Positions 2,863 through 61,905 of a stretch of 64,000 bases of DNA are shown piece by piece. The position numbers and the translations under genes were made by a program. Positions within the stretch are counted from its first letter, which is position 1; each line of letters begins with the position of its first letter. A model generated the notes under the pieces. It was not told where the DNA came from, searched no databases, and worked only from the letters and a program-made list of their open reading frames with translations. This DNA is from Eledone cirrhosa (lineage: Eukaryota), in contig OZ024745.1 of NCBI GenBank assembly GCA_964016885.1, forward strand, positions 57,908,001 through 57,972,000. The letters run 5' to 3'.

Positions 2863-2907
2863 AGTCACTGAAGAGGTCACAGAGTGTGTGACGAAAGGAC
2901 TATGACT
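2863..2907 (+). ncRNA. Minimal type I hammerhead ribozyme, family E pLTR
   Basis: AGTCA-CTGAAGA-G-GTCAC agagtgt GTGAC-GAAA-GGAC-TA^TGACT. Stem I is AGTCA/TGACT, stem II is 5 bp, stem III is minimal, and the cleavage triplet is CUA. Confidence 0.8.
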
Positions 2908-3285
2908 ATATATATAAACAACTATCTGGTTGTGGAACCAACCAACTAACCAGAAATTTATAATTTATAAGTTTGTAGATTTGTAAATTTATGAATTTAT
3001 AAATATATAATAAATTGAAGTGAAAGCAACTGGTGCGTGTGTTTCTTATTGGCAACATGACCCTCCCAAAGTATAACAATATATATATATATATATATAT
3101 ATATATATATATATATATATATATATATATATATATATATATATATATACATATGTAGATAAATCTACCAAAAGTTTACGGTAGTGTCCAATCCGTATGA
3201 AGAACTCAATGTAATCCGCATATCATGAAAAGAGAAGATGCATTCAAAAACCATTTTCGGTGAAAAATAAACGGAAAACAGAGTC

Positions 3286-5256
3286 AATATTGAAGATAAA
3301 ACTGAACCTTTGGCATTGAAAAGACCACACTTCAACCTGAAAGATCATAAATCTAACTTTAACTCTAATCCTTCTATAAGGCTTATATGCCCTTCCAAAT
3401 CTGATATTGGAATAATTAGTAAAAAAAAAATTTTAGATAGAGTCATCCCACAACTAAGAAAACATGTTAATTTACCACTCTGGGAATACACATCCCAGGT
3501 AATTAACTGGTTTAATAATATTAGAAATAAATCCTCTGCTTCTTTTCTACAATTTCATATAGATAATTATTATTCTTCTATATCACCTATACTCCTGAAC
3601 AAAGCCTTGATATTTGCTAAAGATAGATCTAACTTAACTTTGGATGACATTAATATTATTACACATGCTAGACTAACACTATTGGAATTTCAGAATGAAT
3701 ACTGGACCAGAAACACATATAGTAATCTATTCGATATTACTATGGGCTCAAGCGATTCTGCCCAAATTACTGATCTTGTGGGCCTCTTTCTTCTTTTTAA
3801 CGTAAATGCTTCCTTTCCCCACCTTAAAGGTGGTTTATATCGTGACGACTGTCTTCTTCTTTCCAATAACCTTAGCCTCTCAGAGATAGAAAAAAATAAA
3901 AAGCTTATTAGAACTTTCCTTAAAGACTATTATAGTCTAGATATTACATTTGAAAACACAAGTAAAGTAGTTAATTTCCTAGATATAACATTAGACTTAT
4001 CTACGGGTATCTACCAACCTTACCATAAACCCAACCAAAATTTACACTACATACACTCACAATCTAATCACCCTAAATCTATCCTTAAAAACCTTGCATA
4101 TAATATATCACTTAGAATGTCTAACCTTTCGTCTAACCAAGATGTATTTGATAACAATGCGACCTTTTATAAAGAAGCTCTAGCTAGAAGTGGCCACAAA
4201 AATAGATTAGTATATATACCTTCTACCAATAACACTACAAACTTACAACCTAATATTACCAACAAACACCAAATGAAACATACACACCTAAATGCCACTC
4301 ACACAATACCCCAAAGACCAACATAAAAACAAATTTCTCTAACTCTTCTAATATACAGTATAGTAACTCTCAAAAAACTACTCATCCTACAACTCTAATA
4401 AATGTTAATAATAAAACTCCTAATAAACAAGCTAAAACATCTAAATCAATAAATCTAACTAAAAATGTGTGTGGTGTGGTCATTAACAATAATTCTCTAA
4501 ATAAACATCAGGATGCATTCTATAAAAACAATAAACAACATCGAAACCGTAATAGACGAGTTACTTGGTACAATGCTCCATTTAATTTACAAATTAAGGA
4601 TAATATACCTAAAAAAATTATTTAATATCCTAGAGAAAAACTTCCCGCCAAACCACAAATACCATCAAATTTTAAATAAATCAACGGTTAAATTCTCCTA
4701 CTCAACAACCAAAAACATAAAACAAAATATGAGTGCCTATAATGCATATAAATGTAAAAGAACTATGAGTATACCACCAGTACATCAAACTAACCATAAT
4801 ATCTCCTCAGATACAGGATTCACGAAAAGTTGTAACTGTAGAAACAAGGCAAACTGTCCATTAAAAGGAAATTGCCTTGTTAATAACATAGTATATAAAT
4901 GTAAAGTTAACACTAAGGACTCAATTTATTCATATATAGGAGCTACCTCTAACAAATTTAAGGTAAGATTTAATACCCACAAACATAGTTTTAAAAATGC
5001 CGCACTAGCTAATACAACATCTCTAGCTGAAATAAGTAATAGTTATAGAAAGAGGAATATAGATTATGACCTGACCTGGAGTGTGCTCAAAAGGGCCACC
5101 CCTTATCAAAATAGTAGATATGAATGTAGATTATGTTCCCAGGAACTTTTTGAAATAATGAAATCTAAGGATATCCTATTAAATAAGCGACAGGAATTAA
5201 TAATATCGTGTAATCATAAACTGAGAAAAACCTTTAAATATTATAAACCTAATTAA
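3286..5256 (+). pseudogene. Second PLE type (YRDD RT plus C-terminal GIY-YIG; Nematis-like by inference), 5'-truncated and frameshifted
   Basis: ORF 3310-4326: LKDHK..RLICPSKSDIG..FDITMGSSDSAQITDLVG..GLYRDD..NFLDITLDL..YHKPN..SNHP. ORF 4513-5256: CNCRNKANCPLKGNC..IVYKC..YIGATSNKFKVRFNTH..CRLC..LLNKRQEL. Motif A reads QFHI instead of QFDI, and the frame breaks near 4326 and ~4610. Confidence 0.88.
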
Positions 5257-5914
5257 TATACACTTTAGAAATTAATATATAAACTGTTTTTAATTTAGTT
5301 AACCTATAATTAATATTCTACTACTGATGAACTACATAATTTTGCTTTCCTTCTTACAACTATCATTTCCTAAAACTGATACCATTAAGTAAACATATAT
5401 AATGCTTTAACTTCAGGTTATGACTCTATGTTCCTTGAAATCTATATATATTTATTATTTCTCACTAATAATTTTAATTCCCCCCCCCCCAATAATTATA
5501 TGTATATGTAAATGTGTATGTGTGTGTGTATATATATATATATATATGTATGTATATTTGCATGTATATATATATATATATATATATATATATGTGTATA
5601 TATGTATATATGTGTGTATGTGTGTGTGAATGTATGTGTATATATGTATATATATATATATATATATATATATATATATATATATATGTATATATATATA
5701 TATTATTTTTATATTCTTTTAATTCCCCTCATCTTTAACAGCACTTTTCAACTGCATCTAACTCTTATTTATCATATCTATATGTATTAATATAATTTTA
5801 TCAATATAAATATACCCATCAATTAAATTAATTTATATTCTTTTCATAGATGTATTTTTTTTTCACTAACACTCTTATCGTAAAACTGCTTGTATACCTT
5901 TTACTGACCACCTG

Positions 5915-6312
5915 ACCTATTTTCACCCCTAAAATAAGTTTCAATTACTACTATTTTACCATTTGGCCAATTATTAACTTTCTATTGGTTAATTCTAAAC
6001 CTCTTACCAAACAGACAGAATATATTAGATCTTTGTTGGTTTTATTCAATGAACAAATATAATTATTTCTGAGGTCAGCATACCACCTATTTTCTTCCCT
6101 AAAATAATCCTTCATTCATAATATTCTTTTCCATCCCAAACTAAATTCTACCTTCCTCTACCCATAATTTAAGGTTCTTCTACTACTTTATTACTCTCTT
6201 GACCCTTACTATCTCTCTATTGGTCAATTCAAAACCTGTTCCCAAACAGACCTATTGTATTGAATCTTTGTTTTTTTCAATAAACAAATATCATTATTTC
6301 TGAAGACAGCAT
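5915..6312 (+). repeat. Diverged tandem duplication in the region 3' of the PLE ORF
   Basis: ACCTATTTTC..CCCTAAAATAA..CTATTGGT.AATTC.AAACCT.TT.CCAAACAGAC..ATTATTTCTGA.G.CAGCATA occurs twice (~5915-6082 and ~6084-6312). Confidence 0.7.
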
Positions 6313-6547
6313 ATATATGTGTAGGTATGTATATTCCCTCTGATAGTTTGTATAAATATTGTACATAGATCTATAGAATATGCATACCAACTCTAACACA
6401 TATATATCCTAGAAAAGATCGTAAAATGATGAATTTCTTTTAATATAAGGAACTGTTTCTTTGTTTATTCATTGTTTTATTAATTTATATATATACATAT
6501 ATATATATATGTATCTATCTATCTATATATATATTTATATATATATA

Positions 6548-60073: not shown

Positions 60074-60289
60074 ATTGATCTGTTATTTAATAAATATTTT
60101 CTCTACGGTTCTTATATATTTGATATATATTTATCCTTATCGATCCCTCTTTGGATTTTAGTCTTCAAATTTATTATTAATACTATATATATATATATAT
60201 ATATATATATATATATATATATATATATATATATATATATATATATATATATATATATATATATATATATATATGTGGGAAAAGTTCGA

Positions 60290-60423
60290 ATCTAGCTATC
60301 GAAACGGCCGGAGTTCAGCCGTCGGGTCCTGACTCTTTTCGCATTACCCACTCTACTATCCTAATATCGAGTACTCTGGTGTGTTATGGTCCACCTGGTT
60401 TCTTACCACTCTTTGTTTGTTTG
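60290..60423 (+). mobile_element. Family B element end (diverged), starting at HHR stem II
   Basis: TAGCTATC-GAAA-CGGCC ggagttc AGCCG-TC^GGGTCC...CTTACCAC..-(TA)n. Confidence 0.7.
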
Positions 60424-60432
60424 TATATATAT

Positions 60433-61353
60433 ATAGTGAGCAAAGGCACTGCACGAAGCCAGTCCCACTCTCTTAACCAAGATGATATTTACCAAAAAGA
60501 AGAACAAGTCAACATCATTGGATACCATCAGGGTTGCAGGTGTTATATCAGAGTTTTCCTTCTCCTAGAATTCTGCGTTGACAAAGGCTAAGGGGTCATC
60601 TCTCCCGGTGGTTTTGGATGGCCATTGACTCTGAAGAGCTCCTTTGCCCTTTGATAGGTTTTGTTTTTATTCCTGCAGGATGTCCAAAGTCACCCTCTTC
60701 ACCAAGAATCCTTGGTAGGGTTGCCAGTTTAGTCGCCAACGACCCGAAGATGGGACAGGTTGTACTGGTAACATGTATCCTAGTACAACCTGTCCCATGG
60801 TAGGGTCGTTGGCGACTAAACTGGCAACCTTACCAAGGTTTCTTGGTGAGGAGGGTGACTTTGGACATCCTGCAGGAATAAAAACAAAACCTATCAAAGG
60901 GCAAAGGAACTCTTCAGAGTCAATGGCCAACCAAAATCACCGGGAGAGATGACCCCTTATCCTTTGTCAAGGCAGAATTCTAGGAGAAGGAAAACTCTGA
61001 TATAACACCTGCAACCCTGATGGTATCCAATGATGTTGACTTGTTCTTCTTTTTGGTAAATATCATCTTGGTTAAGAGAGTGGGACTGGCTTTGTGCAAT
61101 GCCTTTGCTCACTATAAAAGCTTTACGGCACAGGCATTGCTTTATATCTAGAGATATCTCTGCACTTGTCGTCACATGGTACCATGGGCCCAGTACTATG
61201 TGTCAATAATTGTCGCAAGTGTAGTGTTTGTACCAGAGTTTTCAAGTCACTGGCTGGACTAAAAAGTCACACTCGTTCAGCGCATCGGTAGGGGTTCTCC
61301 TACATGGATATAAAGTAGTGGCCGTACTCGAAAACGAGTTGGCAGCCACCATG
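60433..61353. mobile_element. Family C (RTE-derived) fold-back: ~570 bp unit on plus (60781-61353) with inverted arm (60433-60780)
   Basis: C2H2 finger CSVCTRVFKSLAGLKSHTRSAHR* at 61220-61291. The 3' end is GGCAGCCACCATG-(TA)n. The 5' part contains GTCGTTGGCGACTAA. Confidence 0.75.
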
Positions 61354-61414
61354 TATATATATATATATATATATATATATATATATATATATATATATAT
61401 ATATATATATATAT

Positions 61415-61905
61415 AAATGGAATAGAATGAAACGAAATTTCATTTCTCACTCTTATTACGGCACTTACTTAAATGTAAGTATGTATGTATGTATACGTAC
61501 ATACATATATGTATACAGACGTACAGCAGTATGTATATATATACATACATGCACACATATATATATATGCACGTATCGGTTTACCGAACATTTATTATAA
61601 TGCTCGGTTTGTTTGTTTGCAAACAAACAAACAGCCCGAATTACGCCTTACAGTGTTTAGTGACAGCTAATAAGCTTGAAACTAGTACATCATTCCTGTG
61701 TCAGTGTTGAATAAAAAGGTGACGTGGATGCCTAAACACTGAACGGCGTAATTCGGGCTGTTTGTTTGTTTACAAACAAACAAACTGAGCATTATAATAA
61801 ATGTTCGGTAAACCGATACGTGCATATATATATATGTGTGCATGTATGTATATATATACATACTGCTGTACGTCTGTATTCATATATGTATGTACGTATA
61901 CATAT
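61415..61905. mobile_element. Family A fold-back; the inverted arm begins at HHR stem II
   Basis: 61415-61662 is followed by an inverted arm starting AGCTAATAAGCTTGAAACTAGTA at ~61666. Confidence 0.8.

Follow-up and report, generated by a model that had tools for sequence, protein, structure and literature searches.

Hammerhead Motifs of the Eledone cirrhosa Genome Probably Mark the 3′ Ends of Penelope-Like Elements That Enter (TA)n as Two-Armed Inserts

What are the hammerhead ribozyme motifs that crowd beside (TA)n microsatellites in a 64,000-nucleotide stretch of the Eledone cirrhosa genome (GenBank assembly GCA_964016885.1, contig OZ024745.1, positions 57,908,001 to 57,972,000; the whole stretch is called the window here and is numbered from 1)? 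The first-pass annotation, made from the letters of the window, saw about 11 families of ribozyme RNA, either non-autonomous elements or solo pseudo-long terminal repeats (pLTRs), mobilized into (TA)n by the proteins of Penelope-like elements (PLEs). We consider it likely instead that these hammerheads belong to the 3′ ends of at least nine coding PLE families and to two retrozymes, all in (TA)n, and that their inserts, built of two opposed arms with different 3′ ends, come from a dimer that nicks both target strands and starts one complementary DNA (cDNA) at each of two fixed sites on the RNA. Families are designated by letters.

Motifs were sought with a type I hammerhead descriptor made up of the core, GAAA, UH and three helices. 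The window contains eight core-perfect matches, against a mean of 0.1 and a maximum of 1 in 40 dinucleotide shuffles made in 500-bp blocks, so that the excess proposed as a check of the annotation is present; they lie at 2868+ (family E), 6969+ (F), 7512−, 10440− and 11261+ (A), 13989− and 15233+ (D), and 59085− (J). At a score of at least 20 there are nine matches versus 0.125 per shuffle, and a stricter descriptor retains two. Families K (55740−) and L (54800−) pass once the stem II requirement is relaxed, the family I core at 60029+ carries a U4A change, and the window copies of G, H and M (34991) are damaged. A lax descriptor that tolerates one core mismatch was applied to 20 genome copies per family, these being the best BLAST matches and not a random draw, and was passed by 18 copies of G, 12 of H, 6 of M, 13 of K and all 20 of L. 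The five window copies of family B keep only the 3′ half of the hammerhead; the idea that B lacks one altogether was rejected, as in longer copies the fold is complete, its core having a C3.A8 mismatch in 19 of 20. An unaltered core (CUGANGA, or its U3-A8 form) with GAAA, UH and three helices is present in A, D, E, F, G, J, K, L and N and absent in B, H, I and M. The alteration is fixed in B, in I (A4 in 48 of 49 matches) and in H (C4 in 16 of 16), while the core of M is tentatively read as U3-A8 plus one extra base.

One hammerhead was overlooked in the annotation, that of family N at 6288-6435, which has its core at ∼6300, a strongly paired 105-nt stem II and a folding z-score of −4.78. Folding z-scores are notable only for N and J (−2.98) and unremarkable for 10 of 12 motifs, and of the 169 matches in an Rfam scan of the window, the 150 listed include only spurious microRNA-type ones and none to a hammerhead family; both results are neutral or contrary. 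Elsewhere in the genome RF00163 exceeds its own cut-off at 18 of 74 scored places. BLASTN shows no relationship among the family probes, the best pair having E = 0.004 over 27 nt, and the stems of different families are wholly unlike in sequence. The predicted hammerhead folds of the window are, as far as sequence comparison goes, confirmed as real.

The identity of the elements becomes apparent from longer copies. In B, D, E, G, H, I, J and L, which make up eight of the 12 named families, these are collinear with an open reading frame (ORF) of their own for reverse transcriptase (RT) or the GIY-YIG endonuclease (EN). Family E has PLE protein matches at 14 of 20 loci and a 730-aa ORF, and in the window sits directly behind its own GIY-YIG ORF; I is linked at 3 of 19 loci plus L339, D and L each at three of four extended loci, B at 6 of 20, J at 6 of 12, and G and H at 4 of 12 each. 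Full-length PLEs that share these termini, which the annotation proposed to look for, occur as pLTR-ORF-pLTR units of L (locus L369) and of N (L374). The order RT followed by C-terminal GIY-YIG is seen in an 830-aa open frame of N (L363) and in RT and EN pieces of D, I and L; for B, G, H and J only EN was seen. Family N is young and abundant, with 150 of 150 scored EN matches 94-100% identical, and its tandem copies have a tail that runs on into the following ORF. The only relative with a name among proteins matching an element ORF comes from Argonauta. No ORF link was found for K, an old family with copies ∼80% identical; M is equally old at ∼80%. Loci L170 (H) and L255 (M) were rejected as ORF-linked, the ORFs there belonging to neighboring elements.

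At least one locus of each of B, D, G, H, I, J, L and N has the Hydra linker CxCx5C, and, in the parts that the loci cover, seven of these eight (not H) have CxxC..CxH, D, I, L and N have DKT, and I, L and N have RWK/R. Family E has a CX4CxxC linker and two cysteines in the GIY core, of Neptune/Nematis type; our label Neptune-like does not separate the two. Judged by these motifs, B, D, G, H, I, J, L and N would represent the 3′ ends of Hydra-clade PLEs, and E would be Neptune-like. The motif test reversed an assignment of the N, D, I and L ORFs to Neptune and of E to Poseidon, and Naiad identity was rejected on the C-terminal EN and the presence of hammerheads, as Naiad has an N-terminal EN and no canonical hammerhead. 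The earlier interpretation is therefore partly supported: its tie to PLEs stands through the collinear ORFs of eight named families, its statement that most elements lack ORFs is true of truncated copies only, E carrying one within the window itself, and of its two alternatives the solo pLTR suits most families, the non-autonomous RNA only A and F.

The inserts follow a simple rule. Ten families each have two fixed 3′ ends, one short (S) and one tailed (L), 60-147 nt apart, and nine of ten S sites are followed by TAT or ATA. Among 161 outward-facing arm pairs of nine families, 150 combine one S with one L end (LS), 3 are LL, none is SS and 8 have an unclassified end, so that LS makes up 150 of the 153 classifiable pairs. 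The first-pass annotation was right that elements are inverted or tandem. All 23 pairs from random genomic blocks are LS, off-target loci gave 66 LS, 2 LL and 6 unclassified, and in an earlier pair set 144 of 146 were LS where 73 were expected. Reference ends were hand-picked natural copies, with H, K and M left out because their ends are undefined. Family A was kept out of the pooled count, as its low-complexity matches gave 48 false SS pairs, and under strict criteria yielded 7 LS and 1 LL. The S arm is longer in 55 of the 150 LS inserts and the L arm in 28, with equal arms in 67. Many arm pairs differ by substitutions, and at window 3152-3290 and in L363, L373, L061 and L090 the L arm consists only of the tail or part of it. 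RCTC is found within 22 nt after S in seven of ten references, five of which also have a GAGY partner; the three references that lack it are A, E and the copy chosen for J. Past the L end, families B, D, F and L have RCTC as well as GAGY, and N has RCTC without it, the continuations of G, I and J being uninformative. The chance rate is 2%, and F has this end mark, an RCTC..GAG hairpin, in common with the Hydra families. Arm ends show no pile-up at the hammerhead cut site, except in 2 of 12 off-target G arms. Within the window the inserts are arranged as follows.

1-3078: family E, Neptune-like PLE; a minus arm (RT and EN fragments, running past the window start) head-to-head with a plus arm.
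Within 1-3078, plus strand: E plus arm, with the end of the GIY-YIG ORF (1968-2582), 3′ untranslated region (UTR), core 2868 and S end 3078 leading into (TA)n.
3152-3290, minus strand: inverted arm of N, a 138-nt tail only (L end), against (TA)n.
3274-6485, plus strand: N, predicted Hydra-clade PLE, 5′-truncated and frameshifted; RT 3274-4323, EN 4504-5253, S end.
Within 3274-6485, plus strand: 3′ part of N, with a 1.2-kb UTR, core 6300, 105-nt stem II and a change at stem III.
6550-7220, plus strand: F, ∼1.2 units of a ∼545-nt ORF-less tandem; core 6969; S end 7220.
7265-7951: two-armed A, S left and L right; hammerhead 7512−.
9384-9586: short two-armed B, L left and S right; both arms stop near a fixed point 57 nt upstream of S; hammerhead limited to its 3′ half.
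10203-11713: two-armed multimeric A; hammerheads 10440−, 11261+ and a damaged 10840+; a short adjacent A fragment.
13792-15322: two-armed D (3′ UTR of a predicted Hydra-clade PLE), L left and S right; 13989− and 15233+, U3-A8 core.
26487-26698: short two-armed E, L left and S right, without hammerhead.
26734-26892: B insert with an extra G at the fixed 5′ point.
27458-27701: two-armed G (predicted Hydra-clade PLE end); core 27555+; at the junction, stem I has lost its 5′ strand.
27742-27860, minus strand: single B arm with tail.
27876-28613 (limits approximate), minus strand: H (predicted Hydra-clade PLE end); core 28108, U4C, decayed stem II.
29916-31480, plus strand: older E copy with EN fragment, damaged hammerhead core 31264 and L end.
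34620-35058 (5′ limit approximate), plus strand: old family M; decayed hammerhead at ∼34985-35025.
50300-50472: two-armed B, L left and S right.
54505-54669: short two-armed I, L left and S right.
54688-54827, minus strand: L (predicted Hydra-clade PLE end); core 54800, S end.
55630-55790 (limits approximate), minus strand: old family K; core 55740.
58347-60183: two-armed I (predicted Hydra-clade PLE end), S left and L right; core 60029+, U4A; J nested inside.
58985-59177, minus strand: J (predicted Hydra-clade PLE end); core 59085.
60288-60423, plus strand: divergent single B arm with tail.
61416-61901: two-armed A with L left and S right, the junction cutting through the hammerhead.

The short inserts of family B may show where some cDNAs stop. 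At off-target loci, 44 of 75 B arms end within 4 nt of one point, which lies 57 nt upstream of S, inside the hammerhead and ∼42 nt before the predicted cut. Of 21 arms ending exactly there, 16 show G where the genome has T, and after removal of six junctions explicable by the other arm the extra G remains in 10 of 15; break points elsewhere show it in 5 of 53 (Fisher p = 2e-5), and in J it is weaker (5 of 11). An extra G of this kind can arise from copying of the 5′ cap, and the context is initiator-like. An internal promoter with an initiator is described for Drosophila Penelope (PMC2377424), and the fixed point of B is likely a run-off at a capped start in the pLTR. Splicing was rejected as its cause because there is no constant upstream exon, and hammerhead cleavage because of the ∼42 nt that separate the point from the predicted cut on its 3′ side. 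The junction of short B inserts differs from copy to copy, many junctions being small palindromes, so these inserts would have been made afresh and not copied as a unit.

An unbiased view of density was obtained from sixty 10-kb blocks at round coordinates (600 kb). They contain 45 motifs with a score of at least 20 versus a mean of 2.5 in 8 shuffles, and 29 core-perfect motifs versus 0.4. This amounts to ∼71 per Mb (block bootstrap 46-99), or 48 per Mb core-perfect (29-69), and extrapolates to ∼1.4-2.1e5 motifs in the 3.0-Gb genome; the window is about twice as dense as the random sample. Families known from the window account for 26 of the 45 random-block motifs, and clustering of 404 matches in 330 loci gave 22 clusters of at least two. 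By other descriptors, 126,247 hammerhead motifs are reported for axolotl and more than 6,000 in 16 families for one coral (PMC7229834), and ∼9,000 for Xenopus (PMC4209133). Motifs are very abundant here; totals for schistosomes were not found, so these figures do not make this genome the densest. About ten more hammerhead families outside the window set, some with U3-A8 cores, were seen in random blocks L273, L282-L286, L301, L314 and L321.

The proposed preference for (TA)n was borne out against a control. (TA)6 lies within 250 nt downstream of the predicted cut in 37 of 44 random-block motifs and upstream in 12 of 43, as opposed to 10 of 72 and 10 of 73 beside a control short interspersed nuclear element (SINE)-like repeat. 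The rate for random points is 14.5%, and 3.4% of random DNA consists of (TA)n. The control repeat, ∼190 nt long, is abundant and not TA-associated.

Families A and F differ from the others in being ORF-less tandem units with one type I hammerhead each. The unit of A is 418 nt, with a longest ATG frame of 99 aa, and 24 units occur in the 10-kb stretch of locus L340; no collinear upstream ORF was found at 28 A loci. The unit of F is ∼545 nt, with matches 546-547 nt apart and only dimers or trimers seen, and 20 loci showed no ORF link. By these features A fits the non-LTR retrozymes, and F probably does too. Loci L339-L341 (G000:C28:29328000-29357999) hold a satellite-like A array with 46 cores in 30 kb; there, a 4.9-kb block with a family I insert is itself duplicated. 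At 2964-3898 of locus L331, tandem hammerheads 467 nt apart form a retrozyme-like unit nested in an A insert.

How might one insert acquire two different ends? In the account that we favor, the GIY-YIG domain would cut both strands of the self-complementary (TA)n, and the two 3′-OH ends would anneal to short UA motifs at S and L, beside the RCTC..GAG hairpin in the Hydra families and F. The two cDNAs would either terminate separately or both run to the RNA 5′ end, before being joined head-to-head; priming on the pLTR at the mRNA 5′ end would give short run-off inserts, such as the ∼200-nt B hairpins, that end at the capped start. The RT would cross the hammerhead cut site in most copies, cleavage would not be needed for each insertion, and A and F would borrow PLE enzymes. 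That either arm can be longer favors twin priming at two fixed RNA sites. Since most copies hold the hammerhead together with sequence beyond the cut, the template RNA would have been either uncut or re-ligated, which the data do not separate, and the fixed altered cores of B, H and I would fit a dispensable or protein-assisted ribozyme. In L1 twin priming, two primers from one staggered break produce an inverted insert. L1 inverts a 5′ part without duplicating the 3′ end, whereas both arms here begin at the 3′ end, at two fixed sites. Our literature searches returned no paper that, by title or abstract, applies twin priming to Penelope.

A fuller account is put forward tentatively, with slightly more doubt than confidence. 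Paired priming would be obligate, with one ribonucleoprotein dimer, two hairpin-marked start sites on one RNA, one for each target strand, and every insert two-armed; the commonest short repeats would be strong-stop-like run-offs at the capped 5′ end; a burst would have placed this genome, with ∼2e5 motifs, among the most hammerhead-dense animal genomes known; and non-standard cores, perhaps inactive or rescued by protein, would have accompanied the spread of several families.

The alternative that survives best is snap-back, in which synthesis starts at L, the single cDNA then folds back on its 3′ end and is copied from there, and resolution takes place at S. It would account for the equal arms of 67 of the 150 inserts, which outside B exceed permutation (33 of 105 versus 15.6), and for the many B junctions that are small palindromes. 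However, the S arm is longer in 55 of 150 and the L arm is sometimes the tail or part of it, and an L arm shorter than the S arm cannot template it; some B inserts, moreover, have an extra G on both arms with spacer bases between (L154, L342). As the general route snap-back is unlikely, and it may account for a subset of inserts. Far less probable is that some 11 independent non-autonomous ribozyme RNA families spread as short units. This is true of A, with its 418-nt unit and arrays, and probably of F, and most copies in all families are indeed short and ORF-less; it is refuted for B, D, E, G, H, I, J and L, which continue into ORFs of their own, so the annotated families without proteins of their own do not stand there, and the short B junctions differ in each copy. 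That the palindromes are assembly chimeras or later rearrangements, with TA adjacency due to tail expansion after insertion, is hardly credible, for although (TA)n already makes up a few percent of random DNA, the fixed one-S-one-L asymmetry across ten families, the substitutions between many arm pairs and the (TA)n at both outer ends speak against it.

Several points weigh against paired priming by PLE proteins as the source of the LS inserts. The excess of equal arms outside B (permutation maximum 26) is not predicted by two fully independent cDNAs, and the S/L count was limited to pairs of less than 3.3 kb without a long internal TA run. A sharp 5′ point is clear only in B; it is weak in J (10 of 32 own loci, not in off-target copies) and L (7 of 32), and none was found in D, E, G, H, I and N. 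ORF linkage was established by tblastn with ORFs of this same genome, Pfam support for the element ORFs is below cut-off or none, and the Hydra-clade placement was made from motifs and by-eye likeness to rows of the Hydra alignment. Covariation within families is weak: 89.6% of positions are paired in G, with 2 of 20 pairs changed on both sides, and 87.8% in K, with 3 of 16, where slid controls gave 19-52% paired. Finally, the S sites show TA micro-homology, whereas an in vitro study of the Poseidon element PAc (PMC11167929) found no target homology at the start sites and no strand difference in start site.

That in vitro system otherwise offers the closest mechanistic parallel. Two RT start sites bound the PAc tail, both strands are cut and extended, a dimer is predicted and hammerhead cleavage is dispensable for insertion (PMC11167929); two start sites bounding the tail and an AT-rich target have counterparts here, and so would the use of both strands and a dispensable hammerhead. 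PAc belongs to another clade, and a pairing of start site and strand within one event is not reported in the portions of that paper available to us. Beyond this, the S/L rule indicates that a single insert draws on both start sites, one for each end.

Canonical hammerheads and (TA)n targets belong to the definition of the Hydra clade, and both features are given in the supplement for Hydra-1_Obim of an octopus (PMC8557442). Likenesses to the present elements include RT followed by GIY-YIG, the DKT, RWK/R and CxCx5C-linker motifs, CxxC and CxH (which in the Hydra clade GIY-YIG lie around E and N), the canonical hammerhead at the 3′ end, (TA)n targets, and the inverted 5′-truncated copy with a one-sided tail (PMC8557442). 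That paper places few members outside cnidarians, one of them in octopus, against at least eight abundant, co-existing families here; its units are generally <3 kb, against 4.3-4.5 kb with long UTRs, and its tails 30-40 nt, against 68-147. Strict S/L pairing, fixed altered cores and a cap-G run-off do not appear in its available text.

PLE hammerheads as described in PMC4209133 also share with ours the type I fold in pLTRs, a palindromic stem III, mostly solo truncated copies, an extra nucleotide between 9 and 10.1 (E, F), a U3-A8 core (D) and opposite-strand pairs 100-700 bp apart; several families here differ in a stem III of 3-5 bp or a very long stem II. A U4A (I) or C3.A8 (B) change fixed in young families was not found in the accessible part of PMC4209133, and variants of Lunse et al. 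2017 may overlap; U4C, as in H, is known from a viroid (PMC3088659). The metazoan retrozymes (PMC7229834; bioRxiv 10.64898/2026.07.22.740005) resemble A and F in their ORF-less tandem units with one type I hammerhead each, and the U.U at the stem II base of A is as in axolotl HHR_Amex2. A and F differ in that their inserts in (TA)n have two opposed arms, one with an S and one with an L end, and show no target duplications, and F differs further in its Hydra end hairpin.

The kind of element is therefore already known, from Hydra and Neptune PLE ends and retrozymes, even in octopus. The suggestion that such diversity and density are undescribed in cephalopods holds in part: Hydra-1_Obim, with both hammerhead and (TA)n preference, was published, and sixteen hammerhead families in one genome are on record for a coral (PMC7229834), yet a literature search, with subscription titles largely outside it, found no paper on this density, family number, S/L pairing or capped run-off. 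The main text of an Octopus vulgaris repeat paper, as far as available, does not use the word 'ribozyme' (PMC13282606). The new results are the unbiased density with its control, the cap-G evidence, and an S/L rule that spans two clades and ten families. The observation is real and mostly explained, and a testable mechanistic residue remains. How PLEs form inverted, one-tailed inserts is, according to PMC8557442, still to be worked out, and the near-absolute S/L pairing in two clades and two retrozymes, the probable capped run-off point and the core variants yield sharp predictions for the in vitro PLE system (PMC11167929). For annotation, thousands of short 'unknown' palindromic (TA)n repeats would be truncated Hydra-clade ends and not separate families.

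The remaining features of the window are the ∼190-nt SINE-like repeats and a few isolated stretches.

12807-12985, 16457-16645, 21759-21953, 44728-44915, 46444-46635, 52084-52272 and 53037-53225: SINE-like repeat, ∼190 nt.

Upstream of the older E copy, a degenerate coding stretch at 28588-30400 is partly like the N-terminal part of the E ORF. A TA-flanked repeat in which no hammerhead was detected occurs at 11711-12164 and 60436-61353, with a 678-nt palindrome at 60436-61112, and an element at 12503-13628 has a ∼310-nt direct repeat with a SINE in between. An unbroken (GAA)n run of ∼565 nt at 40575-41139 adjoins a 3′ fragment like that of a long interspersed nuclear element. Outside the window, locus L341 (5483-8904) carries long ORFs (709 and 442 aa) of another retroelement, and L332 (1675-4174) carries ORFs of 381 and 456 aa of another retroelement, weakly like E.

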